Positions 582 through 51,615 of a DNA stretch of 64,000 nt are shown piece after piece. The stretch spans positions 521 through 64,520 of the forward strand of contig CALXXA010000028.1 of the NCBI GenBank assembly GCA_944392585.1, written 5' to 3'. The position numbers were made by a program, and so were the translations under genes. The notes under the pieces were generated by a model. It saw nothing but the letters and a program-made list of their open reading frames with translations. It did not search any database and was not told the origin of the DNA. The DNA comes from an uncultured Alphaproteobacteria bacterium. Its GTDB lineage: Bacteria > Pseudomonadota > Alphaproteobacteria > CAAHEQ01 > UBA3637. Numbering within the stretch: position 1 is the stretch's first letter; each line of letters opens with the position of its first letter.

Positions 582-599
582 GCCGCTTGCGTCCCCGCA
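582..599. repeat. Right copy of the 18-bp direct repeat, 'gccgcttgcgtccccgca'
   Basis: Matches 368-385. Confidence 0.6.
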
Positions 600-602
600 G
601 AC

Positions 603-632: not shown

Positions 633-655
633 TAGCGACCAAAACAACGGAGAAA

Positions 656-1171
656 TTATAAAAATTGAACGGTATCGGACAAGGGCTTCTTGTTCGTATG
701 CGTTGGCGCTGGTGCCGCCGAGGCTGTCGGATAACCGAACATCATGAGCAAAACGGGCACTTCGTTTTTGGGTAAATCAAAAGCCTTGCGCGTTTCATCC
801 GGGTTAAACATATTCACCCAAGTGGAATGAACGCCCAAGTCTGCGGCCTGCAACATCATGTGTGTTGCCACAATGGATGCATCCTCAACGCCCGAAGTAA
901 TAGTCTCATCAGTTGGGTTGTGCCATTCTTGATTTTTATCATAGCAAATAATCATGGCAAGCGGGGCATTGTAGTGACAAGGTGTCACAGCCCGCAACTT
1001 TTCCATGGCCGCCGGTGATTGAACAACATAAACCTTTTGCGGTTGGTTGTTCTTGGCGGTAGGGGCCACTCGACCTGCCTGTAAGATCTTTTGGATTTTT
1101 TCATCTTCAACAGGTTTAGTATCATAACTTCTTTGCGTATAACACACTGTACTCAGTTCTTCAAATGTCAT
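656..1171 (-). CDS. Nitroreductase-family protein, likely cargo of the mobile element
   Basis: 171 aa. NfsB/nitroreductase-fold-like sequence by eye. Clean ORF with a downstream terminator. Confidence 0.65.
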   Translation of the reverse strand: MTFEELSTVCYTQRSYDTKPVEDEKIQKILQAGRVAPTAKNNQPQKVYVVQSPAAMEKLRAVTPCHYNAPLAMIICYDKNQEWHNPTDETITSGVEDASIVATHMMLQAADLGVHSTWVNMFNPDETRKAFDLPKNEVPVLLMMFGYPTASAAPAPTHTNKKPLSDTVQFL

Positions 1172-1249
1172 TGTATATCCTTTCTATTTGTGATTATTAT
1201 ATAGCACTGTTTTTCAAAAAAAGAAAGTAAATTAGTAAGCTAAAAACTT

Positions 1250-2014: not shown

Positions 2015-2047
2015 CAGGTGTGTCCTTTCTAATGAGAAGGAAAAGGG

Positions 2048-3760: not shown

Positions 3761-4191
3761 TATCCAACTCCAAAAAAGCGTTTTCCCGAGGTGCGTATGC
3801 CTGTGATATGATGGGCAGCTGATGATAAACTGGTGTAATAGGTGCCGTCCATATCTACGCCCCTTTCCAAAATAGTGACACGATAGTCCGTCCCTTTATA
3901 GGTGCGGACTATCACTGTTCCCACCGGATATAAGCTTTTCTTGCGTTGTTGTTTTTCAAAGAGTTTTTTAATCAGGCTTTTTGTCTTTAAGGATAATCCC
4001 CCATGGCGTAATTCTTGCAAACGGTAAGAAACGCGCAAGATGTAAAACTCTTTATTGCCAATGCGGGCTTCTTGATTATACAGTTGCATATAATACTGTT
4101 TCAGGACATGAAAAGGCAAATCCGGCACAGTGCTAATATCAATGTTTAAGTCAAGATTTGTATCAACCATAGCGACTCCTTGTGAATACAA
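3760..4191 (-). CDS. DUF2924-family protein, a frequent partner of large serine recombinases
   Basis: 143 aa. Tail 'SLSSAAHHITGIRTSGKRFFG' is typical of DUF2924. Start overlaps the recombinase stop. Confidence 0.6.
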   Translation of the reverse strand: MYSQGVAMVDTNLDLNIDISTVPDLPFHVLKQYYMQLYNQEARIGNKEFYILRVSYRLQELRHGGLSLKTKSLIKKLFEKQQRKKSLYPVGTVIVRTYKGTDYRVTILERGVDMDGTYYTSLSSAAHHITGIRTSGKRFFGVG

Positions 4192-4321
4192 TAACGCTCT
4201 TTTTACAATTTATATCCAGTTAATTCTGATTATTTTTGGCACTTTCTTCCCCTTGATTGAAAACTTTCAGCAAAGTGGGGAGTATGACCAGCGCCAATTC
4301 GTGTAACGGATTGTTCATGGG

Positions 4322-4534
4322 CTACCTCTTATCAAAAGTGATTGCTGTTTTTTCGGCCGATTCCACCCAAGCATCTAAATCCGCCACATCATAAAAACTA
4401 TGACCGCGTACTTTTCTGAACTTGGGGCCGGAACCGTCCACCCGGTATTTTTGCAAGGTGCGTTGGGCTAACCCCAGATAGGTGGCGGCATCTTTTGTTG
4501 TATAAAAGCGTTGCGTTACTTTTCTTTTTTCCAT
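4322..4534 (-). CDS. AlpA/excisionase-family HTH phage regulatory protein
   Basis: 70 aa. 'TTKDAATYLGLAQRTLQKYRVDGSGPKF' matches the AlpA/Xis-type HTH. Confidence 0.7.
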   Translation of the reverse strand: MEKRKVTQRFYTTKDAATYLGLAQRTLQKYRVDGSGPKFRKVRGHSFYDVADLDAWVESAEKTAITFDKR

Positions 4535-4768
4535 CTTTTATTTCTCCTTAATTTATTGTTGACATTGCTCGCCTTATGCGAACAAGGCAAAGATAAAGCT
4601 TAAAAAGAAGAATAAACATTGAGATTTTTTTGAAGAAAACTAGCATTTTTTTAAAAATCCCAGTCTGCGAAAAAAAGTGTTGAGTACAAAAAACTTGTTC
4701 CTGTTCCCCCTGAAAAATATTGCCTTTTTATCGCCTTTTGACTATATCTTTGGATATAGGAGTATCTG

Positions 4769-5530
4769 ATGAAGGAATTTTACAGGAATTTATTTCAAGT
4801 ATATTTGTTTATGGCCCGGGCTTTATTTCCGAAAGATTCTGCTCTGCAACGCGAATTTTTACTGATAAAGGTCTCAGGCCTTGAAAAGGAAATGCCCGAA
4901 GTTTTTGAAAAATTGGGTGGGGTTTCACTTTTACGCCTGTACCGATCGGCCAAAGAGATGAAAAAATTACAAGAGCATATTCAAACAACCGATTGGTCTT
5001 ATGTCATGCGGATGTTAAAAACAATGCAGTCCATGCAACAGGATCCCAAATTGGCCGGTAAAGTCAGCCTCAACAAAGCGGCATTTGTTTTGGATAAAGA
5101 CATCAAAGAGGGAAAAGCTAAAGATTCCCAAAAGAACAATGCCCCTCGCTATAAAGATATCTGGCGCCAATATCGGGGTGTGGCCCATCTGATAGAGGCC
5201 CTTCAAATCATGAAAATGCAGTATCTGGAATGGACAGACAATCCTATCCCTTTTGAAGCCTTTTTGGCGTTGGCACTGGATCACCTGAATTTGGCCGCCT
5301 ATCAACAAGGGGAAGAACTGAAGAAATTGTACGAAGGACATACCAAAAAGCCCATTGTGCCGGCGGATGAATTTTTTGCGATAGAAAAACCAAAACTGGC
5401 CGAAGATGAATTAGCCATTGCCTTGGTGAAAGAGTGCCTTTTAAGCGACCCAACACTCAGTAAGAAAATCAGTAAATACCGCGCCCCGGTCTTTGACTAT
5501 GGGAACTTTGTCATTCCAAGCGATAACTAA
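4769..5530 (+). CDS. Hypothetical protein (253 aa) whose 3' end is duplicated downstream of the Abi cassette
   Basis: Clean ORF, GC-richer than the core genome, divergent from the alpA-like gene. The C-terminal 14 codons plus stop recur at 7104-7159. Confidence 0.55.
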   Translation: MKEFYRNLFQVYLFMARALFPKDSALQREFLLIKVSGLEKEMPEVFEKLGGVSLLRLYRSAKEMKKLQEHIQTTDWSYVMRMLKTMQSMQQDPKLAGKVSLNKAAFVLDKDIKEGKAKDSQKNNAPRYKDIWRQYRGVAHLIEALQIMKMQYLEWTDNPIPFEAFLALALDHLNLAAYQQGEELKKLYEGHTKKPIVPADEFFAIEKPKLAEDELAIALVKECLLSDPTLSKKISKYRAPVFDYGNFVIPSDN

Positions 5531-5541
5531 AATTGCTTAGC
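5486..5541. repeat. Direct repeat A (~56 bp) flanking the AbiE cassette; spans the last 14 codons and stop of CDS 4769-5530
   Basis: 'ccggtctttgactatgggaactttgtcattccaagcgataactaaaattgcttagc' is ~49/56 identical to 7104-7159. Confidence 0.8.
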
Positions 5542-5576
5542 TGATGTCATATTTTATCTATTTTGTAAAAAAATGC

Positions 5577-5605
5577 TTGATTTTCTCCTAAAACTCTAAT
5601 ATAAT
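5577..5605 (+). promoter_or_regulatory. Near-consensus sigma70 promoter for abiEi: TTGATT, 17-nt spacer, TATAAT
   Basis: -35 at 5577-5582, -10 at 5600-5605, RBS AGGAGA at 5615-5620, ATG at 5625. A 6-bp inverted repeat ctccta/taggag (5585-5590 and 5614-5619) flanks the -10 and is a possible autoregulatory operator. Confidence 0.5.
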
Positions 5606-5624
5606 TGGAGTAATAGGAGAAAAT

Positions 5625-6212
5625 ATGATATATTCTTTTGACGATTTAAAAACAAAATATAGTAATTACGCCAAAATTTACGATAAAATACGATATGAAG
5701 TAAAGGCAGGCCGCTTGATACCTATTGCACGTGAATTATATGAAACCGATCCTACGACCGATGGACAATATCTGGCCGGACGTATTTTCGGACCGTCGTA
5801 TTTATCTTTTGATTATGCACTGTATGTTTATTCCCTCATTCCGGAAACTGTTTATAAGACATATACATCTGCCACATTTAACAAGCGCAGAAAAAAGAAG
5901 TATCAAAATAATTTTGGTTTGTTTACATACAGGGATGTTCCGGCAGAAGTATACCCTCTTGCCGTATTAATTCATGAGGAGAATGGCTATTCTTACCAAA
6001 TTGCAACGCCCGAAAAGGCATTATGCGATAAATTATACACTTTACCGCCCATCAAGAATTTGACAGAATTAAAGGAACTTTTGTTTGAAGATTTGCGGAT
6101 AGATGAAGGAGAGTTCGCCAAGCTTAATAAGGAAGTATTAGAAAAAATAGCTCCTCTTTATCATTCAACCAATCTTCACATGCTTAGTAAGCTGATTAGG
6201 AGAACTTTATAA
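5625..6212 (+). CDS. AbiEi-like antitoxin/transcriptional regulator (type IV TA, N-terminal wHTH)
   Basis: 195 aa. 'VKAGRLIPIARELYE' matches the AbiEi wHTH signature (G-x-L-x-R-[IV]-[AR]-R-G-x-Y). Stop overlaps the ATG of the downstream DUF1814 gene (ATAATG). Confidence 0.65.
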   Translation: MIYSFDDLKTKYSNYAKIYDKIRYEVKAGRLIPIARELYETDPTTDGQYLAGRIFGPSYLSFDYALYVYSLIPETVYKTYTSATFNKRRKKKYQNNFGLFTYRDVPAEVYPLAVLIHEENGYSYQIATPEKALCDKLYTLPPIKNLTELKELLFEDLRIDEGEFAKLNKEVLEKIAPLYHSTNLHMLSKLIRRTL

Positions 6213-7072
6213 TGCAAACCATTTTAACCCAGATGTTGGAACAATATCAAACAAAAACTCTGACGGAAAAGAAAAACGCTATAAAGGAGGTTGTCCAAGA
6301 GATTGCCTTATGCGGGTTATCTCGAGCCGATTTCTTTAAACATGTTGCATTTTATGGCGGTACAGCATTGCGTATTTTTTATGGCCTCGATCGTTTTTCT
6401 GAAGATCTGGATTTTTCGCTTATATCTCCAAATCCGGATTTTGATTTAAAACCATATTTTAATGGGCTGGAAACAGAACTGGCTTCGGTCGGCTTAAAAT
6501 TTTCCATAGAAGAAAAAATAAAGTCCGTTGATTCTGACATTAAATCAGCCTTTTTAAAGGGAAATACAAAAGAACATATTGTCAGTATTTATGGCGTGCA
6601 GGACATCAATATTAACCCTAGTGAGATAATCAAAATAAAGTTTGAGATTGATACCAATCCTCCGGCCTTTGCCTCCTTTGAGAATAAATACCGATTACTG
6701 CCGTCACCATATCAAGTTAAACTTTATGATATGCCGTCATTATTTGCCGGTAAGGTTCATGCAGTTATTTGTCGGACTTGGAAAAATCGTGTTAAAGGGC
6801 GTGATTTATATGACTATATATTTTACCTGTCGCACCGATCAAAAATAAATTTACCCCATTTAAAAGCAAGACTTGTAGATTCTGGTGTTTTAAAGGACGA
6901 TGATACATTTACGATAGAAACTTTAAGAACGATGTTAAATGAACGTTTTGAAGCTATTGATTACGAAAGTGCAAAACAGGATGTATTACCGTTTATTACC
7001 GATGCGAATAAATTGGATCTATGGAGTAAGGAGTTTTTCATAGATATTAGTAAAAATCTTGCGGATAAATGA
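6212..7072 (+). CDS. AbiEii/AbiGii-family nucleotidyltransferase toxin (DUF1814)
   Basis: 286 aa. 'FYGGTALRIFYGLDRFSEDLDFSL' is the hallmark AbiEii NTase motif (GG...DLDF). Translationally coupled to the upstream wHTH gene. Confidence 0.8.
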   Translation: MQTILTQMLEQYQTKTLTEKKNAIKEVVQEIALCGLSRADFFKHVAFYGGTALRIFYGLDRFSEDLDFSLISPNPDFDLKPYFNGLETELASVGLKFSIEEKIKSVDSDIKSAFLKGNTKEHIVSIYGVQDININPSEIIKIKFEIDTNPPAFASFENKYRLLPSPYQVKLYDMPSLFAGKVHAVICRTWKNRVKGRDLYDYIFYLSHRSKINLPHLKARLVDSGVLKDDDTFTIETLRTMLNERFEAIDYESAKQDVLPFITDANKLDLWSKEFFIDISKNLADK

Positions 7073-7103
7073 TCAATAACAAATAAAGATTTACTTCTAA
7101 TAT

Positions 7104-7159
7104 CCGGTCTTTGACTATGGTAATTTTGATATTCCAAGCGATAATTAAAATTGCCTAGC
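7104..7159. repeat. Direct repeat B; encodes '...PVFDYGNFDIPSDN*', i.e. the tail of the 4769-5530 protein with mostly synonymous changes
   Basis: Alignment to 5486-5541. Differences are ggg/ggt, aac/aat, gtc/gat and aac/aat. 'attgcctagc' recurs at 7208-7217. Confidence 0.8.
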
Positions 7160-7179
7160 GGATAAAGATACGAAACGAA

Positions 7180-7206
7180 AAAGGCGCAAAGTTATGCCTT
7201 TTTATG
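7180..7206 (+). terminator. Possible rho-independent terminator after the Abi cassette
   Basis: aaaggc-N10-gccttt followed by tttta. Confidence 0.35.
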
Positions 7207-7374
7207 GATTGCCTAGCAAAGAAAGTTTTGGGTGGTTCATTTGCTTAAATAGCACTTTTGCTTTCATCTCACAAAAAACACAGATGAATTGTGGTAAATG
7301 GGCATTTTCACATTGAGCCTAAAATTCATCACAAGAGCCTTTATAACTTAGCTTTCATCGCCTCATTTCAGGCA

Positions 7375-7400
7375 CGAAAAAAGCCCGTCTAAAACGGGCT
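7375..7400 (-). terminator. Rho-independent terminator of tRNA-Ala
   Basis: agcccgt-ctaaa-acgggct hairpin, followed on the minus strand by TTTTTTCG. Confidence 0.6.
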
Positions 7401-7411
7401 GAATCTTAAAT

Positions 7412-7487
7412 TGGTGGAGGTAAGGAGGATCGAACTCCTGACCTTTGCAATGCCATTGCAACGCTCTCCCAGCTGAGCTATACCCCC
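7412..7487 (-). tRNA. tRNA-Ala, anticodon GGC
   Basis: Reverse complement: GGGGGTATAGCTCAGCTGGGAGAGCG TTGCA-ATGGCAT-TGCAA AGGTCAGGAGTTCGATCCTCCTTACCTCCACCA. Cloverleaf with a 7-nt anticodon loop centred on GGC. CCA is encoded. Confidence 0.9.
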
Positions 7488-7548
7488 GTTTGATAAAATA
7501 TGAGTATATATAAATTTTTTTTTTATACAAGAAAAAAATAATTTTTTC

Positions 7549-8262
7549 TTATTTTAAATGACCTTCCATCTTTAATGAAGTTGCTCCAGTCCTTGAAATA
7601 ATAATATGGTCGCTTAATTCAATGGATAAAGAAACAGCGACATCTTTGAGTTGTTGGGTTGTTTTTATGTCTTGTATGGAAGGACGGGCATCTCCAGAAG
7701 GATGATTATGAATTAAAACCATAGACGTCGCACCAAGTTCCAAAGCTTTGTGAATAATTTCTCTCGGATATAAAGGAACTTTATTAATGGTTCCTTCCCC
7801 CATTTTCTGATCTAAAAGCAAGTGAAGTTTTGCGTCTAAAAATAAAATATGAAAAGATTCTTTTTTCTCACGACCAAGAGTCGAATAGCAATAATCCATA
7901 ATTTTAGCTCTGTTTCCCAAAATAGGTTGATTGATTAAATCTCTTCTTAAAATGGTTGCATGAGCGGCGCGAATAAGTTTAAACAATACTATTGTATTTT
8001 CTTTGATATATTTAAACCGATAAAGTTGTTCCGCCTCGGCGCATAAGACGTTTCCAAGCGTGTAAAACTCTGCTAAAAGCTGTTTAGCCAGCAGTTTCAC
8101 GTCTTTTCTGGGAATAGAATACATTAAAAGAGCTTCTAAAATCTCGTAATCATCAAAAGAACTTAAATCTGTTTTTAATATTTTTTCTTTGGTTCTCTCT
8201 CTGTGCCCGTGCAACAGAAGTAAAGGAGATTGATCATCTGGATGAGAAGGTTTCTTTTTCAT
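7549..8262 (-). CDS. radC: RadC-family JAB-domain protein
   Basis: C-terminus 'HNHPSGDARPSIQDIKTTQQLK' is the JAMM/RadC motif. The start probably lies at the internal Met (MKKKPSHPDD...), not the track's 8412 start, which would overlap map by 180 bp. Confidence 0.7.
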   Translation of the reverse strand: MKKKPSHPDDQSPLLLLHGHRERTKEKILKTDLSSFDDYEILEALLMYSIPRKDVKLLAKQLLAEFYTLGNVLCAEAEQLYRFKYIKENTIVLFKLIRAAHATILRRDLINQPILGNRAKIMDYCYSTLGREKKESFHILFLDAKLHLLLDQKMGEGTINKVPLYPREIIHKALELGATSMVLIHNHPSGDARPSIQDIKTTQQLKDVAVSLSIELSDHIIISRTGATSLKMEGHLK

Positions 8263-9067
8263 TTTTAACTGTCTTTTTCTGAATAAAATAAGGAGGATAA
8301 TCATATCCGGCCGGAGATAAAGTAAATACCTCAGGCCCATTTTTTGTAATTCCAATGGTGTGTTCAAATTGTGCGGACAGAGAGCGATCTTTTGTAATAG
8401 CCGTCCATCCATCTGATAAAATTAATGTATCAGAACCTCCAATATTAACCATAGGTTCTACTGTAAAAATCATTCCTTCTTGAATAGGCATTCCGTCTCC
8501 TTTTTTCCCATAGTTTAATACATTTGGTAATAAATGAAAGGCTTGCCCTACGCCATGTCCACAAAAATCTTCCACAACAGAGAAACGTTCTTTTGAGGCG
8601 CATAACTCGATGGCATGACCAATGTCTCCCATGGTGTTTCCTATTTTTGCCTGATTAATTCCGGCCCACATGGCATGAAAAGCGCATTCGACTATCCTTT
8701 TTGCCTTAATAGAAGGAGTTCCGACATAGTACATTCTGCTGCTGTCTCCATACCATCCGTTTAAAATAGGAGTAATGTCTATGTTGACGATATCTCCGTC
8801 GTAAAGGACTTTATCTCCTGGTATTCCATGGCAGACAATATGATTCGCCGAAATACAACTGGCTTTTGGATAGCCTCTGTATCCAAGAGTTGCCGGAATG
8901 GCTCCATGATCTCTCATGAATTCTTCCATTAAAGAGTCTAATTTTCCCGTTGTAATGCCGGGGACGACAAAAGGCGTGATATAATCTAGCGTTAAGGCAG
9001 CCAAATGGCCGGCTTGACGCATTCCTTCAAATTGTTCTACTGCATATAATGCTATTTGTTTATTCAT
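8234..9067 (-). CDS. map: Methionine aminopeptidase type I
   Basis: 277 aa. M24-family metal-ligand pattern (D..D..H..E..E) and typical MAP sequence. Confidence 0.85.
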   Translation of the reverse strand: MNKQIALYAVEQFEGMRQAGHLAALTLDYITPFVVPGITTGKLDSLMEEFMRDHGAIPATLGYRGYPKASCISANHIVCHGIPGDKVLYDGDIVNIDITPILNGWYGDSSRMYYVGTPSIKAKRIVECAFHAMWAGINQAKIGNTMGDIGHAIELCASKERFSVVEDFCGHGVGQAFHLLPNVLNYGKKGDGMPIQEGMIFTVEPMVNIGGSDTLILSDGWTAITKDRSLSAQFEHTIGITKNGPEVFTLSPAGYDYPPYFIQKKTVKNEKETFSSR

Positions 9068-32780: not shown

Positions 32781-33794
32781 ATGGAAAAAAAATATAGACT
32801 TCTCACACGAGATGACTTTGATGGGTTGGTGTGTGCCATTCTGTTAAAAAAATTAGATTTGGTTGATGATATTGTGTTCGTTCATCCAAGAGACGTGCAA
32901 CATAACAGAGTCTCCGTCTCCGCAAGAGATATTTCTGCTAATCTGCCGTATGTCCCCGGTGTTTACATGGCGTTTGATCATCATCCTCCGGAAAATAAGC
33001 AGGCAATATCATATACAAATTTTGTTTGTTCCCCGAAGGCTCCTTCTACGGCACAGGTCATTTATGATTTCTTTAATATGGAAGAAAAGTTCCCGAACGT
33101 TTTTGATGAAATTCTTCACGCTCTTAATAAAGCAGATACAGCCGATTTTTCTCAGCAGGATATTTTGGACTCTCAAGGATGGGCTTTGTTTAACTTTATT
33201 TTAGATCCTAAAACAGGCTTTACTCGTTTCCATGATTTTCAAACACAACATGAAGATCTTGTACGTTTATTGATTAATTCTATTGAAGGGATGTCTATCA
33301 ACGATATTTTAAATATGCCGGATATACAAGAACGGGTAATGCTTTATAGAACATATCAAAATCATTTTAAGGATCAAATCGAAAGATGTGCAACCGTTTT
33401 CCAAAACTTAGTCGTCGTTGATTTACGTGATGAGGAAATTATTTATCCGGGGAATCGTTTTTTAGTATATGCTCTTTATCCAAATTGTAATTTGTCTTTA
33501 ATGATCGAAAAAGATGTTAAATCAGAACGAATTACATTTTCTCTTGGAAGATCTATTTTAAATAAATCGTCCAAAGTGAACGCAGGAGCAATAATGGCAC
33601 TGTACAACGGGGGAGGACATACAAAGGCAGGGACTTGTCAAAGCTCTATTTTTGATGTAGAAAAAGTAAAAATGGATCTAATCGCGGCTATTTTGATGGC
33701 CTCCAAAAAAACGGACAAGGGAGAGCAAATAAATGAATATTCACGAGTATCAAGCGAAAAAAATATTCAGCCAGTATGGAATTCCAATTCTTAA
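32781..33794 (+). CDS. DHH-family phosphoesterase (NrnA-like)
   Basis: 337 aa. DHH motif 'MAFDHHP' and N-terminal 'DFDGLVCAILL' (DxD). Confidence 0.65.
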   Translation: MEKKYRLLTRDDFDGLVCAILLKKLDLVDDIVFVHPRDVQHNRVSVSARDISANLPYVPGVYMAFDHHPPENKQAISYTNFVCSPKAPSTAQVIYDFFNMEEKFPNVFDEILHALNKADTADFSQQDILDSQGWALFNFILDPKTGFTRFHDFQTQHEDLVRLLINSIEGMSINDILNMPDIQERVMLYRTYQNHFKDQIERCATVFQNLVVVDLRDEEIIYPGNRFLVYALYPNCNLSLMIEKDVKSERITFSLGRSILNKSSKVNAGAIMALYNGGGHTKAGTCQSSIFDVEKVKMDLIAAILMASKKTDKGEQINEYSRVSSEKNIQPVWNSNS

Positions 33795-34911: not shown

Positions 34912-35807
34912 TGAGTATATTAGGAGATGAAAAAACACGTGTTATTTGTCAGGGAATTTTAACGCCGGAAGGGTTGAAACATACAGAACAAGCGTTGGCC
35001 TATGGGACAAACATTGTCGGAGGTGTTGCCAAAGAGAAAAAAGGAGGACAAATTTTCGGTGTTCCTCTTTATCACTCTGTTAAAGAGGCGGTAAAAGAAC
35101 AAAATCCGGATGTTAGTGTGATTTATACAACTCCTTTACAAGCAGCAGAAGAGATTATGGATGCGATAAGGGCTCAAGTTCCTTTGATTGTCTGCACGAC
35201 TGAACGTGTCCCTGTACAAGATATATTGAAAATCAGGAGCGTTTTGAAAAATTCAAAAAGTCGCTTAATTGGACCGGCTTCTCAAGGAATTATTACGGCG
35301 GGGGCTTGTAAAATAGGAACGATGCCGGCTCATTTGTTCCAAAAAGGGAATGTCGGGATTATGTCTAGATCCAGCTCCGTAATGTATGAAGCTCTGCAAC
35401 AACTTCATAATAAAGGACTGGGAGTGACAACTTGCGTCGCTTTGGGAGCTTACCCTATATTAGGAACTTCTTTTAATGATATTTTAGATTTGTTCTTGAA
35501 AGATAAGCAAACAGAAGCTATTTTATTAATAGGAGAAATAGGGGGATCTTTTGAACAAGATTTAGCAGAGTATTATCTCCAAAAAACAAATAAGAAACCT
35601 TTAATAAGTTATGTGGTGGGGAGTTTCGTCCCTCTTAAAACGTATATGGGAAATATTGGAGCCATTGTCAGTAAAAAAACAGAAACAGCTTCTTTTAAAA
35701 AAGAAATATTGAAAAAATCAGGCTCTATTATTGTTGATTCTCCAGTTCAAATCGGAGATGCTGTCTTTAAGACTTTAATACAACAAACATCAAAGAGTAA
35801 AAAATGA
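34911..35807 (+). CDS. sucD: Succinyl-CoA synthetase alpha-subunit homolog lacking the catalytic His (GHAGA to GNIGA) and the GxTGxxG CoA motif
   Basis: 298 aa. Aligns along its full length to SucD. 'VICQGILTPEGLKH' replaces 'VICQGFTGSQGTFH', and 'YMGNIGAIV' replaces 'RMGHAGAII'. Confidence 0.75.
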   Translation: MSILGDEKTRVICQGILTPEGLKHTEQALAYGTNIVGGVAKEKKGGQIFGVPLYHSVKEAVKEQNPDVSVIYTTPLQAAEEIMDAIRAQVPLIVCTTERVPVQDILKIRSVLKNSKSRLIGPASQGIITAGACKIGTMPAHLFQKGNVGIMSRSSSVMYEALQQLHNKGLGVTTCVALGAYPILGTSFNDILDLFLKDKQTEAILLIGEIGGSFEQDLAEYYLQKTNKKPLISYVVGSFVPLKTYMGNIGAIVSKKTETASFKKEILKKSGSIIVDSPVQIGDAVFKTLIQQTSKSKK

Positions 35808-36358
35808 ATATAGAGTTAACAAATTTAATTTATACGCGAATCAGTCATGATTTATCAAATCCGGCAGGAGCTCTTTATAACGGAGTAGAGTTGTTGTCCG
35901 AAAATGTTTCGGATCTTCAGGAAATGACCATCCTTTTGCAAAATAGTGCAACGGTTCTAATGGCAAGGTTGAAATTTTTTAGACAGGCTTTCGGTCTTCA
36001 AAATGTAACTTCTGAGGACGCAACGCAAGATTATTTGGCTTCATTATCTTCTCCGGTCCGTTTGGTCGGCGTTTGTTTGGATCCGTTGTCAAAAGTTTGT
36101 GCTATGGTTCTGGCAGATTGTTTAATTCGAGGCGGAACCATCACTGTAAAAGAAAATGAAATTACTGCTTATGGCGATAATATAAAAAGCCTCCCGAATT
36201 TAAAGGAAATTTTAGAAAAAGGAGAAAATGTTTCTGTTCCCGCGTTGGCGCCGGCTTATTATGCATTCTATTTAGCAAAAAGACAAAATTTAAAACTTTC
36301 TTTTTCCTATGATGTTCAAAGAAATTTTATTTCTTTAAAAAAAGTTGTGTTTTCTTAA
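35804..36358 (+). CDS. chpT: ChpT-like histidine phosphotransferase
   Basis: 184 aa. 'RISHDLSNPAGALYNGVELL' is the ChpT/HPTransfase H-box-like motif. Confidence 0.55.
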   Translation: MNIELTNLIYTRISHDLSNPAGALYNGVELLSENVSDLQEMTILLQNSATVLMARLKFFRQAFGLQNVTSEDATQDYLASLSSPVRLVGVCLDPLSKVCAMVLADCLIRGGTITVKENEITAYGDNIKSLPNLKEILEKGENVSVPALAPAYYAFYLAKRQNLKLSFSYDVQRNFISLKKVVFS

Positions 36359-36385
36359 AAAATATGACATCCTATAAAATAAGGA

Positions 36386-36748
36386 ATGAAAATGAAAAAA
36401 GCTCTTATTATCGAAAAGGCGCCTCACATCGCTGCTATTACAAAAAAAATGCTCGAGGATTTAGGGTTTATCGGGGTTATTGTCAATAATAAAGATGATG
36501 TTCTCCCGACTTGTGAAACAGAACAACCGGATCTGGTTATAATGGGGTATTCCACCTGTCAAGAAAGTAGTGCCGTATTTATTCCTAAAATGAAAAAAAT
36601 TTGCCAGCCGCAGATTATCTTTTGCTCTTCAAACTCTGAACCCGATAAAATTAAAGAGGCTCTGGATAGCGGGGTGGATGAATATATTATGAAGCCTTTT
36701 GATCATGATATCTTACAAAGTAAAATTTCTATGGTCGGTTTGTTATAA
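36386..36748 (+). CDS. Single-domain response-regulator receiver lacking the phospho-acceptor Asp (pseudo-receiver)
   Basis: 120 aa. CheY-like fold with conserved K ('YIMKPF') and S/T. The acidic pocket DD reads EK, and the D57-equivalent position after β3 'DLVIM' is Gly. Confidence 0.55.
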   Translation: MKMKKALIIEKAPHIAAITKKMLEDLGFIGVIVNNKDDVLPTCETEQPDLVIMGYSTCQESSAVFIPKMKKICQPQIIFCSSNSEPDKIKEALDSGVDEYIMKPFDHDILQSKISMVGLL

Positions 36749-36760
36749 GAGGTCCCTAAT

Positions 36761-37642
36761 ATGATTCCGAATGATTTTTATTTTATCGCCCAAATCCTTA
36801 AAGAACGTTCCGGCTTTTCTTTAACCGCGGATCAAATATATTTATTGGAAAGTAGGTTGAGTCCGATTATTCGTCAGAATAATCTAATTAGTTTGGAGGA
36901 TTTAATTAATTCTTTGAAGCTTAACAATAAAGAATTAAAGGAAGCTGTTATCGAGGCCGTAAGTATTAATAATACGAGGTTCTTTAGAAATACATATGCT
37001 TTTCAGACTATTAAAGAGTTCTTGCAAGATCTTTTAAAGAAAGATGCACAAAAGAAAAATTTTAAGATCTTATCCGCTGGGTGTGCCAGTGGGCAAGAAC
37101 CTGTTTCTATCGCGATCTTATTAAAAGAAATGAATCTTCCAAAAGATATTCGAATAGATATTTTTGCGCTTGATATGTCGCATCATATTATAGATCGTGC
37201 TAAAAAAGGCATCTATACTCATTACGAAGTGCAAAAAGGACTTCCGATCAGATTTTTGCTGAAATATTTTACGCATTTGGAAGAAGCATGGCAGCTCCAT
37301 CCGGAGATTATGCAATTAATTCATTATCATGTTCATAACATTATGGATCTCTTTTATGAACAAAATTTTGATATAATATTGTGTAGAAACATGCTCTCTT
37401 ATATGACAGATGAGGCTCAGAAAAAAGCGGTACAGAATCTTCGAGAGATTCTATCTCCGGAAGGTTTGTTAATTGTCGGAGCTTCTGAAACACTGCATCA
37501 AATGGAAGGATTCGAAAAAGTTCCGGATCGTGTCGGATGTTATCAAATTAAACAGATTGATAAAAAATTGGAAACTGTCCCTAAAACAGCATGGACAATT
37601 ATTAAAAAACCTTTATTTAAACCGGCTGTCCCTAAGAAATAA
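36761..37642 (+). CDS. CheR-family SAM-dependent protein-glutamate methyltransferase, orphan
   Basis: 293 aa. 'ILSAGCASGQEPVSIAILL' matches the CheR SAM-binding motif. No other che genes are in the window. Confidence 0.7.
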   Translation: MIPNDFYFIAQILKERSGFSLTADQIYLLESRLSPIIRQNNLISLEDLINSLKLNNKELKEAVIEAVSINNTRFFRNTYAFQTIKEFLQDLLKKDAQKKNFKILSAGCASGQEPVSIAILLKEMNLPKDIRIDIFALDMSHHIIDRAKKGIYTHYEVQKGLPIRFLLKYFTHLEEAWQLHPEIMQLIHYHVHNIMDLFYEQNFDIILCRNMLSYMTDEAQKKAVQNLREILSPEGLLIVGASETLHQMEGFEKVPDRVGCYQIKQIDKKLETVPKTAWTIIKKPLFKPAVPKK

Positions 37643-37721: not shown

Positions 37722-38297
37722 TTATTTATGTAATTGATGATAAATTTCCTCTGCTTTGGGCAAAGCTTCTTCTACGGAATTGACAAAATAAACATAATTA
37801 ATTTTTTCTTGATTTAATGTTCCGTCGGTATACATGCGAGTTAATTGTTCTTTAAAACAATCCCAAAAACCGTAAAGATTAATAAAAATCAAAGGTTTTT
37901 TCTTTATCTCTCCCGTTTGAATTAAAACAGAAAATTCCGCAAGTTCGTCTAATGTTCCCCACCCGCCGGGGAGTATAAAAATAGCATCTCCTTCTTTAAA
38001 CATTTTGAATTTTCGTTCAGATAAAGTAGCGACGATTTCAATTTCTCCTTCTTTGAATAAACCTGGATTTTCACATTGAAGAGCTAATAATTTAGGTGTT
38101 GTTATACCGCGTATAGAACCGCATTCTCTCAAAGCTCCATGGAAAACTTCTCCCATCATCCCATTATCTCCTATGCCAAAAACAAGTTGTAAATCATTTT
38201 TGGCAATGATTTCTCCAAGCTTAAATGCTGCTTCATTATAGCGAGGATTAATGTTCTTTGCGGCGCCTCCAAAAACCGTTACTCGTTTGAATATCAT
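37722..38297 (-). CDS. LOG-family protein (TIGR00730, cytokinin riboside 5'-monophosphate phosphoribohydrolase-like)
   Basis: 191 aa. 'PGGWGTLDE' LOG motif and 'VFGGAA' N-terminus. Confidence 0.8.
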   Translation of the reverse strand: MIFKRVTVFGGAAKNINPRYNEAAFKLGEIIAKNDLQLVFGIGDNGMMGEVFHGALRECGSIRGITTPKLLALQCENPGLFKEGEIEIVATLSERKFKMFKEGDAIFILPGGWGTLDELAEFSVLIQTGEIKKKPLIFINLYGFWDCFKEQLTRMYTDGTLNQEKINYVYFVNSVEEALPKAEEIYHQLHK

Positions 38298-38391
38298 TTT
38301 TTCTCCTTTTTTATAAAGTATTGAATAAAACTCCTTAATCTTTTATTAAGATAAAAAAGATAAACTCTTTTTAAGAGAAGGGGCTGATTTT

Positions 38392-40140
38392 ATGATAAAT
38401 ACAGATATTTCAAAATATATTATTGATTATACCGAAAGGAATAGAAAAGAAAAGTTAATTCATTTAGTTGGGCGAAATGAGGAACTGAACAGATTAACGC
38501 ATATTTTATCGAGAAAATACAGAAATAATCCGTTAATTGTTGGATCTGTCGGGATTGGGAAAACGGCTCTTATCGAAGGACTTGTTTGTTTTTTGGATTC
38601 TGATGTCGCTCCAAAAGGATTAAAAAATAAACACATTGTTGGTGTGGATATTTCTTCTTTGATGTTGGATTGCGAAAATGACACTATATATACTCAAAAA
38701 TTAAAAGCGATTTTCGAACAAATCACGGCTTCTGGAAAACAGAACATTCTTTACATTAAGGATGTTAGTTTTTTAGTTAGGACAAATATAAATCCTGAAA
38801 ATACAGAACCCGCCAAGTTTTTGAAATTAAAGTTATTAGAAGGAACTTTAAATTGTATCGTGGAAACAGATCCTTTCCATTATAGGTCTTTTTTGGAAAA
38901 AGACACGGCGGTTCTTCAAATGTTACAAACAGTATTTCTTGAAGAGCCGACTCTTTCGGAAACGATTGAAATCGTTTCTAATCTTAAGAAAAATTATGAA
39001 GATTTTTACCACGTGATTATTCCTGATGCTTTTGTTGAAGTAGCGGTAAATTTAACACATCGTTATATTAAACAACGATTTTTCCCGGAGAAAGCATTAG
39101 ACTTATTAGATGATGCAGCCAGTCTGTTGCAAATAGAACAAACTATGGGAAAATTTCCTCAAGAAGTAAAAGAGCTCCCCGTAGATTTTGCAAGACAAGT
39201 TGTTTCTTTGTGGACTGGAATTCCTGTCGAAAAAGTAGATACAGAAGATAAAAAACGACTGGCTCATGCAGAAGAGTATCTAAAGAAACGTGTGGTGGGA
39301 CAAGATAATGCCGTTGGAGTCGTTTCCGATGCGTTGCGTCGTTCAAGATCTGGGTTACAAGATCCTAATAGACCTATAGGATCTTTTTTATTTATCGGAG
39401 AAACCGGTATTGGGAAAACAGAGTTAGCTAAATCTTTGGCTGAATTTGTGTTTAGTGATGAGAGTGCTTTATTACGGTTAGATATGTCGGAATATATGGA
39501 AAAAAATTCTGTTTCCCGCTTAATCGGTCCGCCTCCGGGAACACCGGGCTTCGAATTAGGAGGGCTATTAACTGAAAGTGTTCGATTAAAACCATTCCAA
39601 GTCATTTTATTTGATGAAATTGAAAAGGCTCATCCGGATATCTTAACGTTGCTTTTACAAGTTTTAGATGAAGGGCGATTAACAGATAGCAAAGGAATCT
39701 CTGTCGATTTTAAAAATACGATAATTATTATGACCTCAAATGTTGCTTCCAGTATGCCGACTTATCAAAGAATGGGCGTGTTGACACAATATTTTAGACC
39801 TGAGTTTTTAAACCGTATTGACGATGTTGTTACATTTCATCAATTAAAGGAAGAACATTTACATAAGATTATTGATATTCATTTGAATAAATTATTAAAG
39901 CGAGCAGAAGCTGAAGGCTATTATTTAACGGTGGATGATAGAGCTAAACAATGGTTCGTTGATGAGGTCTTTACATCAAAGTTCGGAGTTCGTGCTTTGA
40001 AACGATTGCTGCAGCATCAAATTGAAAATCCATTAGCTTTCTTAATCATGCAGGAAAAAGTCAAACCGGGAACTTATGTATTGGTCTCAATGGATAGCTC
40101 CGGGAAAAAGATACAGCTCTTTGCAAAGAAGAAAAAATGA
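38392..40140 (+). CDS. Clp/Hsp100-like double AAA+ ATPase lacking the N- and M-domains, with degenerate NBD1 Walker B and pore loops
   Basis: 582 aa. Walker A 'GSVGIGKTAL' and 'GETGIGKTELAK'. NBD2 Walker B 'ILFDEIEKAHPD' is intact. The NBD1 Walker B region reads 'ILYIKDVS' (no DE). The pore-2 'GYVG' reads 'GTPGF'. Confidence 0.7.
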   Translation: MINTDISKYIIDYTERNRKEKLIHLVGRNEELNRLTHILSRKYRNNPLIVGSVGIGKTALIEGLVCFLDSDVAPKGLKNKHIVGVDISSLMLDCENDTIYTQKLKAIFEQITASGKQNILYIKDVSFLVRTNINPENTEPAKFLKLKLLEGTLNCIVETDPFHYRSFLEKDTAVLQMLQTVFLEEPTLSETIEIVSNLKKNYEDFYHVIIPDAFVEVAVNLTHRYIKQRFFPEKALDLLDDAASLLQIEQTMGKFPQEVKELPVDFARQVVSLWTGIPVEKVDTEDKKRLAHAEEYLKKRVVGQDNAVGVVSDALRRSRSGLQDPNRPIGSFLFIGETGIGKTELAKSLAEFVFSDESALLRLDMSEYMEKNSVSRLIGPPPGTPGFELGGLLTESVRLKPFQVILFDEIEKAHPDILTLLLQVLDEGRLTDSKGISVDFKNTIIIMTSNVASSMPTYQRMGVLTQYFRPEFLNRIDDVVTFHQLKEEHLHKIIDIHLNKLLKRAEAEGYYLTVDDRAKQWFVDEVFTSKFGVRALKRLLQHQIENPLAFLIMQEKVKPGTYVLVSMDSSGKKIQLFAKKKK

Positions 40141-41135
40141 ACAATTTGACAGAGTTATTATTGGATTGGTACCGTCAAAAAGGAAGAAATCTCCCATGGC
40201 GAGTCAAAGGGGGAGCTCATCAAAACGCTTATTTAGTTTGGGTATCTGAAATTATGCTGCAGCAAACAACCGTTCAAACAGTTTGCAGTTATTTTAATCA
40301 ATGGATACAAAGATTCCCAGATCTAAAAACTTTAGCCGATGCTTCTTTAGATGATGTCTTGCATATGTGGCAAGGATTAGGATATTACACTAGAGCAAAA
40401 AAAATGCATGAATGTGCTAAAATCCTTGTCTCTCAATATAATGGGCATTTCCCTAAAAATCGTGAGGAATTATTAAAGCTGCCGGGAATAGGGCCTTATA
40501 CAGCTTCTAGTATTTGCGCATTTGCTTTTAATCTTCCGGAAACAGTTGTGGATGGAAATGTTGTTCGTGTTATCTCTCGTTTAAAAGGAATAACAACCGA
40601 AGTTGATAAAAAAAATATTTATGAACATGCCAAAAAATTGACTTCTTTCAATCATAGCGCCGATTATGCTTCTGCTATCATGGACTTAGGCGCTACTGTT
40701 TGCAGACCTCAAGCCCCTTTGTGCCAGAGTTGTCCATGGAATCATGCTTGTCAGGCAGTCGCCTTGGGAATCGTAGAGAAAATTCCTCAAATAAAAAAAA
40801 TACAGAAAAAGAAAAAAAACGGAGCCGCTTTCATTATTTATGACTCTCAAAACAGATTATTTATTTTAAAAAGATCTCAAAAAGGATTGCTCTTCGGTCT
40901 ATGGGAATTGCCGTGGACTGATGAAGGTGAAAAAGTTCCGTTCGATGGCTTGTGGATTAAAAAAAATGAAACGGTAAAGCATGTGTTTACACATGTAGAT
41001 TTAACTTTGAACCTTTACGAAACTAAAGTTTCTTGTCTAAACGATTTCTTAGAAAAGGGACTGTTCGTTCAAAAAGATATGTTACATGTATATGCTTTTT
41101 CAACGTTAATGAAAAAAATCTTGAGTAAAATTTAA
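40137..41135 (+). CDS. mutY: A/G-specific adenine glycosylase MutY
   Basis: 332 aa. HhH-GPD 'LPGIGPYTA', 4Fe-4S Cys cluster 'CxxxxxxCxxCxxxxxC', and a C-terminal NUDIX-like domain. Confidence 0.85.
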   Translation: MNNLTELLLDWYRQKGRNLPWRVKGGAHQNAYLVWVSEIMLQQTTVQTVCSYFNQWIQRFPDLKTLADASLDDVLHMWQGLGYYTRAKKMHECAKILVSQYNGHFPKNREELLKLPGIGPYTASSICAFAFNLPETVVDGNVVRVISRLKGITTEVDKKNIYEHAKKLTSFNHSADYASAIMDLGATVCRPQAPLCQSCPWNHACQAVALGIVEKIPQIKKIQKKKKNGAAFIIYDSQNRLFILKRSQKGLLFGLWELPWTDEGEKVPFDGLWIKKNETVKHVFTHVDLTLNLYETKVSCLNDFLEKGLFVQKDMLHVYAFSTLMKKILSKI

Positions 41136-49422: not shown

Positions 49423-51615
49423 TTACCGGAGGACTTCGCGGACTTTTTGTGTTAATTGAGACAAGCTAAAAGGTTTGGGAAGGAAAGAGAAAGTTTGAGA
49501 ATCATCTTTCCCATGTCTGGCGAAGTCTTGAGAATAGCCGCTCATTAAAATGACTCGGATATTAGGATATCGATTTTTAGCAAGTTCAGCAAGCGTTTCT
49601 CCATCCATTCCAGGCATCATCATATCGGTTAGCAGTAAATCAAAAGGTCCGTTTTCTTCCATTTTTTTGAGAGCCTGTTCTCCGTCGGAACATTCTGTTA
49701 CGGTAAATCCTTTATTTTTAAGGACACGCGAACTAAAAGCACGAACAGCATCTTCGTCTTCTACCAGTAAAATTTTTGCGGAGCTTGTCGGAAAAGTATG
49801 AATGATTGTATTTTTCTGATCCGGCTCTTTTGATGCTTGCGTGAAGCGAGGTAAGTAAATAGTGAAAGTCGTTCCTTTTCCTAAAGAACTTTCCACTTGA
49901 ATATATCCGTCTGTTTGAGTAATGATTCCATAAACGGTTGATAATCCCAGACCTGTTCCAGAACCGGCGATTCCTTCTTTTGTCGAGAAGAAAGGTTCGA
50001 ATATACGAGATAAATTTTCTTGAGAGATACCGCATCCTGTATCAGTGACTGTAATAACGATATAAGTTCCCGGTATCATGATATCAGATCCGACGGTCCT
50101 TGTTTTTTTAAATGTTTCAACTTTGCTTTTGATTGTTAAAGATCCTCCATTCGGCATAGCGTCTCTTGCGTTGACGGCTAAGTTTAAAAAAACTTGGGTT
50201 AATTGATTAGGATCTACTTTAACGAAACCTAATTCCGGCGCATGTTGTGTTTTGAGCTCTATTTTAGGTCCGATACTGCGATGTAAAAGAGCCGTTAATT
50301 CCGAGAAAGCATCAGCAATATCTATAAGGCGAGGTTTTAAAGGTTGTTTTCTTGAAAAAGCGAGTAATTGACCAACTAAAGCAGAGGCTCTGTTTGCATT
50401 ATGCTTTATTTGCATAATATCGGCAAAAGAAGGATCTCCCATAGTATGTTTTTGTAAAAGTAGATCCGAAAAGCCGATAATTGCTGTCAACAAGTTGTTA
50501 AAATCATGAGCGACACCTCCGGCTAATTGCCCCATAGCCTGCATTTTTTGAGCGTGTGCCATTTGCATTTCCAGATTTTTTCGTTCAGATGAGTCGGTTA
50601 AATACAAAATGAAAGAGGAAACATCTGTCTCCTCAAGCCCGTTCATCTTAGGTTGTATAGGAGCTATAAATGCAATGGCGCTTCGTGTTTGCCCGTGAGG
50701 GAAAATAAAATTTAATTCGCATTTTTCAAATTTTTGAGCTTTCATTAGAAGCTTTGATAGCTTAAGCGGTAATGTTTCTTTGCTTTCTGTGTCAATAAAA
50801 GATAAAAAAGATTGGTCTTTTATTTGTTCAAATGGCAATGCCATCATCTTTTGAAAAGCTATATTCGCTTCTAAAACGGATAAATCCATTGCATCAATAA
50901 CGACCATTCCTAAAGGAGCATTTTGGAAAAAATCCGGAAATCCATCCGTATGGAATGAAGAGGTCGACGGAGAATCTTCTTCTTTAATGACAATGCTTTG
51001 GAACATTGTTTTCCCATCTTGATCAAAAGATGTTTGATAGACTTTGGCTGGGAAGGTCTTTTTCCCCGATTTAAATAAAACGCTTCCGCTCCAAGCTCCA
51101 TTCATATCAGGAAGTAATCCTTTGATGATTTCTTGTAAATGACGACCTTTAATATCTTCTTGTTTTTTATCCGTCCAATGAGATAATACGTCATTCATAA
51201 ACTGAACGCATCCTTCTGAATCAACAATATAAAGTCCGACGGGAAGTGTATCAATCGATTCTTGTAAAGTCGCTTGTTCTTGTCGAATTAAAGATTGAAT
51301 GACAACGGTGTCTGTTAAATCTTCTCCTATTAAAAGAAAATCTTTATTTACTTTCTTGAGCGTTATTTTATATGTTTTTTCTTCAACTTCTATTTGAACG
51401 CTTAAAGGACATCTTTGCATATAAGCGCTTTTGAGCTTTTCCAAAACGTTTTGTTGCGTTGTTTCTTTTAAAAAAAGAAAAGGATCTGTTCCTTCTTTAA
51501 AAAGTTGACGCCCTTTTTTGTTGGAAACCAAAACACGGCCATGGCTGGAGCGAAGTTGGCGCGCATCCGATTCTGTGTCTAGCAACGCTTGAAGAGCTTT
51601 GTTTTTCCCAATCAT
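49423..51615 (-). CDS. Hybrid sensor histidine kinase/response regulator (PAS-PAS-HisKA-HATPase-REC), CckA-like, apparently soluble
   Basis: 730 aa. H-box 'GVAHDFNNLLTAI', G2 box 'GTGLGLS', receiver 'LLLTDMMMPGMDG'. No N-terminal TM segment is evident. Confidence 0.8.
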   Translation of the reverse strand: MIGKNKALQALLDTESDARQLRSSHGRVLVSNKKGRQLFKEGTDPFLFLKETTQQNVLEKLKSAYMQRCPLSVQIEVEEKTYKITLKKVNKDFLLIGEDLTDTVVIQSLIRQEQATLQESIDTLPVGLYIVDSEGCVQFMNDVLSHWTDKKQEDIKGRHLQEIIKGLLPDMNGAWSGSVLFKSGKKTFPAKVYQTSFDQDGKTMFQSIVIKEEDSPSTSSFHTDGFPDFFQNAPLGMVVIDAMDLSVLEANIAFQKMMALPFEQIKDQSFLSFIDTESKETLPLKLSKLLMKAQKFEKCELNFIFPHGQTRSAIAFIAPIQPKMNGLEETDVSSFILYLTDSSERKNLEMQMAHAQKMQAMGQLAGGVAHDFNNLLTAIIGFSDLLLQKHTMGDPSFADIMQIKHNANRASALVGQLLAFSRKQPLKPRLIDIADAFSELTALLHRSIGPKIELKTQHAPELGFVKVDPNQLTQVFLNLAVNARDAMPNGGSLTIKSKVETFKKTRTVGSDIMIPGTYIVITVTDTGCGISQENLSRIFEPFFSTKEGIAGSGTGLGLSTVYGIITQTDGYIQVESSLGKGTTFTIYLPRFTQASKEPDQKNTIIHTFPTSSAKILLVEDEDAVRAFSSRVLKNKGFTVTECSDGEQALKKMEENGPFDLLLTDMMMPGMDGETLAELAKNRYPNIRVILMSGYSQDFARHGKDDSQTFSFLPKPFSLSQLTQKVREVLR

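Follow-up and report, generated by a model that had tools for sequence, protein, structure and literature searches.

A minimal Hsp100-like protein with a rewritten channel, and its putative subfamily, in uncultured Alphaproteobacteria

What can an Hsp100 protein be once its accessory domains, the hydrolysis set of one of its two ATPase modules and the tyrosines of its pore have gone? The question is raised by a gene located at positions 38392-40140 (+ strand) of the DNA analysed here, a 64-kb stretch (referred to as the window) from an uncultured Alphaproteobacteria bacterium. This gene encodes a protein of 582 residues plus stop, named here the Clp-like protein, whose homologs are recorded in databases as 'ATP-dependent Clp protease ATP-binding subunit' or 'AAA family ATPase'. 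On balance, we lean towards regarding it as a functional member of a distinct, previously undescribed class-1 Hsp100/Clp subfamily present in a clade of uncultured Alphaproteobacteria, and its function is probably other than classical protein disaggregation. The taxonomic range of the family is narrow, and searches of the literature brought up no account of it.

Domain make-up, catalytic residues and channel

The open reading frame (ORF) opens at the first start codon past an upstream stop and is preceded, 8 nt before the ATG, by a ribosome-binding site, GAAGGGG (38377-38383; all coordinates within and just before the gene are on the + strand). E. coli K-12 ClpB and ClpA (EcClpB and EcClpA) were used as rulers for residue positions, the numbering and the roles of the ClpB residues being checked in Deville et al. 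(2019, PMC6593972), where the AAA2 ring of ClpA is discussed as well, and in Rizo et al. (2019, PMC6546751). The first-pass annotation of the window had placed the start of the protein at the linker of the first nucleotide-binding domain (NBD1) of ClpA/ClpB, with neither N- nor M-domain, and this description stands. The start lies six residues before the equivalent of ClpB 161, as in all family members, and Pfam gave no match to Clp_N (PF02861) in the protein. Since only 94 bp separate the gene from a divergent LOG-family gene, there is no room upstream for a hidden N-domain. As for the M-domain, a short linker of about 31 residues (245-276; 39124-39219) is found where ClpB has a coiled coil of about 120 residues, the whole linker measuring 31 residues here versus 145 in EcClpB and 27 in EcClpA.

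Pfam recognised AAA_lid_9 (residues 189-261), AAA_2 (327-478) and ClpB_D2-small (485-564), and over NBD1 just weak generic P-loop matches, together with a sub-threshold match to NBD_SMAX1 (23.1 bits versus a cutoff of 27). The tandem AAA+ modules, a first module (D1) with AAA_lid_9, and an AAA_2-type second module (D2) followed by ClpB_D2-small place the protein in class-1 Hsp100/Clp, in a form pared down to the two modules and the D2-small domain. The best-scoring curated NCBIfam model is that of ClpB (TIGR03346; 606.1 bits versus a curated equivalog cutoff of 1232.1), ahead of those of ClpA (TIGR02639; 517.9 bits versus 993, aligned in a single stretch over residues 5-566) and ClpV (TIGR03345; 440.6 bits versus 885); a ClpB control from Hyphomicrobium (P0125, 66% GC) reaches 1389 bits on TIGR03346. 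The protein is clearly Hsp100-related, yet it stays under every curated family threshold. The protein aligns over its full length with ClpA, ClpB and ClpC structures. Among solved structures, the best sequence match is E. coli ClpB, in two blocks: residues 6-296 align with ClpB 161-447, with confident alignment stopping near ClpB 405, and residues 267-567 align with ClpB 536-848, so that HMMER splits the alignment at 405/536. Local tblastn against EcClpB gave 34% identity for the first module (EcClpB 161-415) and 51% for the second.

NBD1 (residues about 20-262; 38449-39177) keeps the AAA+ fold with its catalytic set gone. The Walker A motif, GSVGIGKT (G51-T58; 38542-38565), is intact, and G51, G54, G56 and K57 are family-invariant; the residue following the P-loop Lys is altered in two divergent members (GKNA and GKKT). 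The Walker B motif is degenerate ('ILYIKDVS', residues 119-126; 38746-38769), with K123-D124 at the position of D278-E279. The degeneration of the first module extends beyond what the first-pass annotation had described, as sensor-1 and the arginine fingers are also lost: E158-T159-D160 (38863-38871) corresponds to A313-T314-T315 of ClpB, with T315 replaced by D160, and Q176-M177 (38917-38922) occupy the place of R331-R332. Judging from the alignment, D1 lacks every residue needed for hydrolysis or inter-subunit communication (Walker B Asp-Glu, sensor-1 and both arginine fingers) and could at most bind nucleotide.

By contrast with this dead set, that of the second module is complete. The NBD2 large subdomain (39259-39831), which accounts for the 51% identity to EcClpB, harbours intact Walker A (GETGIGKT, G336-T343, including K342; 39397-39420) and Walker B (LFDE, D408-E409; 39607-39618) motifs, and both sensor-1 N450 and the arginine finger R475 (39739-39816) are intact. 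In the ClpB_D2-small domain (39844-40083), sensor-2 R534 is conserved within GVRALKRL.

The channel differs in both modules. The D1 pore loop reads DCENDTIYT (D93-T101; 38668-38694), with N96 in place of Y251, and the ClpB salt-bridge residues K250/R252/E254/E256, a network required for ClpB activity (Rizo et al. 2019, PMC6546751), are E95/D97/I99/T101 in the Clp-like protein; over residues 90-101, the net charge is -3 per protomer versus 0 in ClpB. At the position of the D1' secondary pore loop of ClpB (A289/D290), a family-specific and near-invariant NPENTEPAKF (N134-F143; 38791-38820) is found. The D2 pore loop is rewritten as GPPPGTPGFE (G379-E388; 39526-39555), T384-P385 replacing the Y653-V654 clamp, and it is kept as GPPPG[TSQ]PG[FY]E in nearly the whole family, the divergent member P0124 having GPPAG. 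In the D2' secondary pore loop, SEYMEKNSVSRL (39487-39522), E370-K371 (E639-K640 of ClpB) are retained and H641 is replaced by N372. Altogether, three of the four substrate-contacting channel elements of ClpB are replaced by new family-invariant sequences, and the D2' Glu-Lys pair alone is kept. Among the 147 non-family sequences compared, non-aromatic D1 loops are not rare, and the pore-2 aromatic is lost in a single one. This sequence, P0188, has the non-aromatic D2 loop PPSLGNHE and forms with P0238 an atypical Clp-like group of about 1020 residues, with an N-terminal region of about 355 residues and neither a D1 pore loop nor D1 arginine fingers.

Finally, no IG[FLM] ClpP-docking motif occurs between the D2 sensor-1 and arginine finger of any family member. 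This segment measures 21 residues versus 33 in EcClpA and EcClpB, that is 12 residues shorter by residue count, and the alignment also opens five gap columns in EcClpA within it. Because the ClpP-docking loop is missing, the 'Clp protease' database name is almost certainly wrong. The motif states that had been read from the letters at the outset, namely an NBD1 with Walker A and without Walker B Asp-Glu or pore loop, an NBD2 with both Walker motifs and without its pore-2 tyrosine ('GTPGF'), and no evident IG[FL] loop, are thus all recovered, and the alignment restores neither a canonical NBD1 Walker B nor canonical pore loops.

The family, its maintenance and its relatives

A word-indexed search returned 120 closest homologs of 567-794 residues, sharing 61-100% identity with the Clp-like protein. 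The named ones come nearly all from metagenome-assembled genomes (MAGs) labelled 'Alphaproteobacteria bacterium', and one, labelled Lactobacillales, may have been binned wrongly. Public assemblies contain an identical protein (P0271) and a two-residue variant (P0001), and MAGs with the gene include GCA_949287675.1, GCA_017962565.1 and GCA_017466695.1. An exhaustive HMMER search against 1.84 billion cluster representatives yielded no more than five clusters (50% identity) with an end-to-end alignment, which starts at about residue 3-8; their scores are 812, 653, 631, 619 and 610 bits, versus at most 501 bits for canonical Clp proteins. The motif states of the query are common to all 120 closest homologs and to four cluster representatives at 49-53% identity, well beyond what chance would produce. 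They comprise the start at D1, the P-loop Lys, a [KNQR]-[DE] Walker B and no arginine fingers in D1, as well as NPENxEPAKF, GPPPG[TSQ]PG[FY]E, the short D2 segment (PxYQR) and the GVRALKRL sensor-2 motif; minor variants occur in distant representatives (e.g., GPPAG in P0124, GVRELKRL in P0121). The replacement motifs NPENxEPAKF and GPPPG[TS]PGF show little or no variation in their turn, and this indicates a changed function, not decay. Related genomes carry the same short form and no protein of normal length.

Longer members differ just by variable, low-complexity C-terminal tails, acidic or proline-rich, of which the query has none. These disordered tails span 20-210 residues in many members (e.g., P0060, P0063, P0069, P0084 and P0118), and several finish in a similar ...L-x-x-DEE/HEE motif, reminiscent of the acidic C-termini by which other chaperones recruit partners; the window protein ends in KKKK. 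A profile search of genome contigs with the family alignment, which used motifs common to all Clp ATPases, gave canonical ClpC/ClpB loci only (36-44% identity) among the matches listed. The best of these listed matches, L010 (44% identity over a short match), was rejected as a member, having canonical motifs and an N-domain while being M-less.

The gene is under purifying selection. Compared with a near-identical copy (L004), six synonymous and two nonsynonymous changes are observed. In comparisons with relatives of 62-71% identity, synonymous divergence (dS) is saturated and nonsynonymous divergence (dN) amounts to 0.11-0.18 in NBD2 and 0.31-0.49 in NBD1, with dN/dS at most about 0.13-0.28 where dS could be estimated. 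Within the family, identity is 0.43 for NBD1 versus 0.67 for NBD2, the corresponding values being 0.48/0.57 in ClpB-type and 0.55/0.57 in ClpC-type proteins, and in relatives of about 82% identity NBD1 has accumulated roughly three times the substitutions of NBD2. These divergence and identity figures indicate that NBD1 is relaxed but still maintained, and that NBD2 is strongly constrained.

A confident AlphaFold2 model based on a 49-sequence family alignment (mean predicted local distance difference test score, pLDDT, 83.4) displays two alpha/beta AAA+ modules joined by the short linker, and its confidence extends to NBD1. With Foldseek against PDB, the best matches are protomers from cryo-electron microscopy structures of ClpC, ClpC1 and ClpB hexamers (template modelling, TM, score 0.67-0.74; 36-41% identity), and the modelled fold is consistent with that of a ring-forming Hsp100 protomer. 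With regard to phylogeny, neighbour-joining trees were built separately for NBD1 and NBD2 from 145 representatives, with EcClpA and EcClpB added. In each tree, the family forms a monophyletic group on a long stem (0.35 for NBD1, 0.18 for NBD2), and its NBD2 distance is 0.70 to EcClpB versus 1.10 to EcClpA. Its apparent sisters are other atypical Clp proteins that themselves score under the curated cutoffs, and for this reason the groupings probably reflect long-branch attraction. A parent group with canonical motifs and both deletions was searched for and none was found. An orphan branch within class-1 Hsp100, with ClpB-type proteins as nearest relatives, is the most apt description of the family.

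Like ClpB/Hsp104, the Clp-like protein combines tandem AAA+ modules with AAA_lid_9 and D2-small, has no ClpP loop and keeps the D2' Glu-Lys pair; unlike them, it is devoid of N- and M-domains, hence of DnaK docking and repression, and it has lost the D1 hydrolysis set, the Tyr251 network and the Tyr653/Val654 clamp. With ClpA it shares a D1-D2 architecture without M-domain. In ClpA, D1 serves mainly for assembly and D2 is the main motor; however, the Clp-like protein possesses neither the IGL loop for ClpP nor the N-domain for ClpS, and its D1 appears catalytically dead, not merely slow. More generally, and in contrast to ClpA, ClpC and ClpE, it has no Clp_N for adaptors (ClpS, MecA). A group of M-less Hsp100 proteins without ClpP loop (the 747-residue L010 protein, P0128, P0236 and P0252) resembles it in having neither M-domain nor IG[FL], and in some cases a short sensor-1-to-arginine-finger segment, but these proteins carry an N-terminal domain of at least 142 residues, canonical Walker B, arginine fingers and pore tyrosines, and in NBD2 their identity to the family (0.45-0.51) does not bring them nearer to it than ClpB-type proteins (0.48).

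Outside these groups, NSF-D2 and Pex1/Pex6-D1 would be analogous in function alone, one ring serving for assembly while the other works; NSF and Pex1/Pex6 belong to other AAA+ clades, are not family-level homologs, and keep aromatic pore loops in their active ring. Plant SMAX1/SMXL/D53 proteins and Torsins are likewise Hsp100-related, with degenerate ATPase or pore features, and have been recruited to non-disaggregase roles; Torsins are not known to have aromatic pore loops. Both are nevertheless eukaryotic, SMXL proteins having a double Clp-N, an M-like region and an EAR motif and Torsins a single AAA+ module, and both differ from the Clp-like protein in that its D2 catalytic set is complete.

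Genomic setting and the clpB slot

The window comes from the chromosome of an alphaproteobacterium of low GC content (37%) that shows anaerobic traits, and it encodes CckA, ChpT, NrdD/NrdG, PPDK, sucCD, glgBX and secDF; its sequence is matched by the ENA scaffold ERZ16268229:scaffold_232 and by the MAG GCA_949287675.1. The clp-like gene is followed by mutY (40137-41135, +), whose start overlaps the clp-like stop (ATGA). Given this overlap and the lack of a + strand terminator between them, both genes are probably co-transcribed. Nothing resembling a sigma-32-type promoter is apparent ahead of the clp-like gene, where a weak sigma-70-like element, TTGAAT-17-TATTAA, was seen by eye, below the scan threshold.

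The divergent neighbour noted in the first-pass annotation is indeed a LOG/TIGR00730-family gene (37722-38297, -). The order LOG (divergent)-clp-like-mutY is found again in relatives of as little as 62% identity; L005/L006 and L007/L008 have one or two additional genes within it (a single one between LOG and the clp-like gene in L005). The mutY gene adjoins the clp-like gene in L005 and L009 and is nearby in L007. LOG is present at L005 and L007 and absent at L009, L094 and L095, and the distant members P0121 and P0124 are located on contigs of about 50% GC with neither mutY nor LOG nearby. Conservation of the locus, which the first-pass annotation had proposed to check, is therefore a lineage synteny and not a family trait, and the LOG/mutY linkage, as synteny of a subclade, is weak evidence for function.

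Directly upstream of the clp-like gene and on the same strand, L005 (6868-7986) and L009 (6965-7990) have an unannotated gene coding for a 341-372-residue protein with a signal-peptide-like N-terminus; as a possible partner it was rejected, being apparently secreted and without homolog at the window locus (16-21% identity to the ORF there). The response regulator located 1.6 kb upstream was not recognised as CpdR but as a generic receiver. An anti-phage defence AAA+ protein (Dodola DolB, PDC-M37B) was also rejected, since PADLOC gave at most 121 bits over the generic AAA_2 region alone and the neighbours are housekeeping genes. No type VI secretion genes occur within +/-10 kb at any locus examined.

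Elsewhere in the window, ChpT (weak N-terminal match), a single-domain response regulator and a CheR-type methyltransferase lie co-directionally after sucCD (35804-37642), 12 kb from the hybrid kinase CckA (49423-51615). Upstream of sucC, a 337-residue ORF without Pfam match (32781-33794) overlaps the predicted sucC start by about 60 nt at its end. The beginning of the window (1-8412) is a probable integrated island beside a tRNA (7415-7487, -), with a GC content of 43% at 1-4000 versus about 36% elsewhere; it codes for a large serine recombinase (2048-3760, -), an AbiEii toxin (6212-7072, +) with its likely AbiEi partner directly upstream (5625-6212, +), and a RadC-JAB protein (7549-8412, -). 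No rRNA was found by Rfam scan.

The right end of the window bears on the question of a canonical clpB. In a Hyphomicrobium-type genome (L090), the genes run prfA-prmC-DUF4167-clpB, an order common in Rhizobiales. In the window, prfA and prmC are the last genes; past its end, the contig continues with an apparent inserted island, then ldcA and a tRNA synthetase gene, and neither DUF4167 nor clpB follows prfA-prmC at this locus. In addition, L007 and L009 have a DUF4167 gene at a distance of 2.5-3.6 kb from the clp-like one, and the 64-kb window holds no other Clp ATPase. The empty clpB slot and the DUF4167 proximity fit, as hints, descent in place from clpB. The apparent inserted island after prmC (L091, 12486-17958), which is the second one besides that at the beginning of the window, occupies the position where L090 has DUF4167-clpB; it encodes an ASCH-domain protein, a helix-turn-helix regulator, an SNF2 helicase split in two ORFs, a 446-residue unknown protein and a 599-residue TnsA-like protein.

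Proposed mode of action and alternative explanations

The explanation that we consider best overall, and hold with rather more belief than doubt, is that of a stand-alone Hsp100 ATPase, with a non-hydrolysing D1 scaffold, a single D2 motor and a rewritten acidic channel. The protein would assemble into a ClpB-like hexamer, whose D1 ring would be a nucleotide-binding but non-hydrolysing scaffold, by analogy with NSF-D2 or Pex1/Pex6-D1, and whose D2, with its complete catalytic set, would be the sole motor. This would fit with ClpB itself, where threading is driven mainly by AAA2 and AAA1 has a regulatory role (PMC6593972, PMC6546751). The Tyr/Val clamp, the D1 tyrosine and the salt-bridge network would have given way to a D2 loop that is rigid and Pro-rich and to an acidic entrance at D1. 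In ClpB, the Y653A mutation and D1-loop charge reversals impair function (PMC6546751, PMC6593972), and the replacement of the clamp and of the D1 tyrosine network would mean that the protein is no general tyrosine-driven threading disaggregase. Restricted clients, possibly basic, would probably be remodelled or held by a weaker or different grip, the protein acting alone, as no site for ClpP, DnaK (M-domain) or N-domain adaptors can be recognised in it; in the low-GC subclade, it would be expressed as part of a housekeeping operon with mutY. The suggestion of the first-pass annotation that this is a derived Clp protein and no canonical disaggregase agrees with the missing M-domain, N-domain, gripping tyrosines and ClpP loop and with the scores below the ClpB, ClpA and ClpV cutoffs. 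With regard to the regulatory or adaptor-like role suggested there, an NBD2 with all its catalytic residues in place speaks for a self-sufficient ATPase motor over a passive adaptor.

Several points weigh against the stand-alone, single-motor explanation. The hexamer, the nucleotide-binding D1 and the ATPase activity in D2 are all predicted from sequence, and the GKNA and GKKT variants suggest that D1 nucleotide binding may not be universal in the family. AAA+ motors without aromatic pore residues sometimes still translocate. The charge of the loop is the sole pointer to a preference for basic clients, and the mutY linkage is missing from the contigs of the divergent members, so that it says little about function. 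A bolder version of this explanation, which we put forward tentatively and with less belief than disbelief, is a single-motor Hsp100 derived from ClpB, with a tyrosine-free channel, that works without threading as now understood, acting on basic clients as, for instance, an ATP-gated clamp or holdase, and that may be the sole ClpB-type chaperone of its host.

Among the alternatives, which we rank in the order in which they are taken up here, the foremost is that the gene is the sole clpB ortholog, highly derived in situ, and encodes a DnaK-independent unfoldase or disaggregase that threads with non-aromatic loops. We think this unlikely, while granting it real weight: NBD2 is nearest to ClpB-type proteins (0.70 to EcClpB versus 1.10 to EcClpA; 51% identity; ClpB as best NCBIfam model), the D2' Glu-Lys contacts are retained, an island without DUF4167 or clpB fills the slot after prfA-prmC, DUF4167 lies 2.5-3.6 kb away in L007 and L009, and no other Clp ATPase is present in the window. 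However, the absence of a canonical clpB covers one locus and some 90 kb of contig, L007 and L009 do not agree in how DUF4167 is ordered and oriented with respect to the clp-like gene, and the trees place atypical long branches, not ClpB specifically, as sisters. Moreover, Y653A and charge reversals at K250/R252/E254/E256 cripple ClpB disaggregation (PMC6546751, PMC6593972), and all of these positions are changed here. The next alternative, in line with the first-pass annotation, is a regulatory subunit that would form mixed hexamers with canonical ClpB or ClpA, or cap them, tuning their activity without handling substrate. The protomer fold, the D2 arginine finger and the D2-small and lid domains for ring contacts are conserved, as this would require, and the start of the protein is near that of ClpB80, the annotated N-terminally truncated isoform of E. 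coli, which mixes with full-length ClpB. A dead D1 and tyrosine-less loops also resemble the engineered 'poison' subunits of mixing experiments (PMC6593972). We nonetheless hold such a modulator to be improbable: neither the surroundings of the gene nor the usual clpB slot yielded a canonical partner, the conserved D2 catalytic set and new channel motifs exceed the needs of a passive modulator, and the strong divergence of the NBD1 interface residues (34% identity to ClpB) makes mixed rings less likely.

The remaining two alternatives are far less credible. The loss of domains and canonical motifs, the faster evolution of NBD1 and the low-GC, probably host-associated genomes might suggest a decaying, functionless clpB or clpA remnant in a reduced genome, but conservation effectively refutes it: the ORFs are intact and of constant architecture in more than 120 clusters at 90% identity, dN is far under the saturated dS in both halves, the NBD2 catalytic residues and the replacement motifs are invariant, and the gene has a good ribosome-binding site and translational coupling to mutY. 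Least probable of all is an N-domain-less, ClpA-like unfoldase feeding ClpP. Two AAA+ modules without M-domain, over which the ClpA model aligns as one stretch (5-566), would suit it, but it is effectively excluded by the missing IG[FL] loop, whose host segment has 21 instead of 33 residues in all members; in addition, NBD2 is much further from EcClpA than from ClpB, the score of 518 bits compares with a ClpA cutoff of 993, and the pore tyrosines are gone.

The mechanism of Hsp100 proteins is framed by aromatic threading pore loops and by accessory domains (N, M, ClpP loop) that couple them to partners. Here, a family lacking these domains, one catalytic ring and both gripping tyrosines is selectively maintained, with its new channel sequences frozen, and this combination of losses and newly fixed channel motifs would be notable to AAA+ specialists. 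If active, the protein would define a minimal Hsp100 core and provide a natural test of the need for the canonical threading apparatus, or else reveal a different mode of action; should the bolder version hold true, it would be a natural counter-example to the rule that an Hsp100 needs aromatic pore loops and two active rings. For the organisms themselves, an active protein would also bear on proteostasis in a poorly known clade of Alphaproteobacteria, low in GC, anaerobic and probably host-associated, in which a classical disaggregase may be missing.

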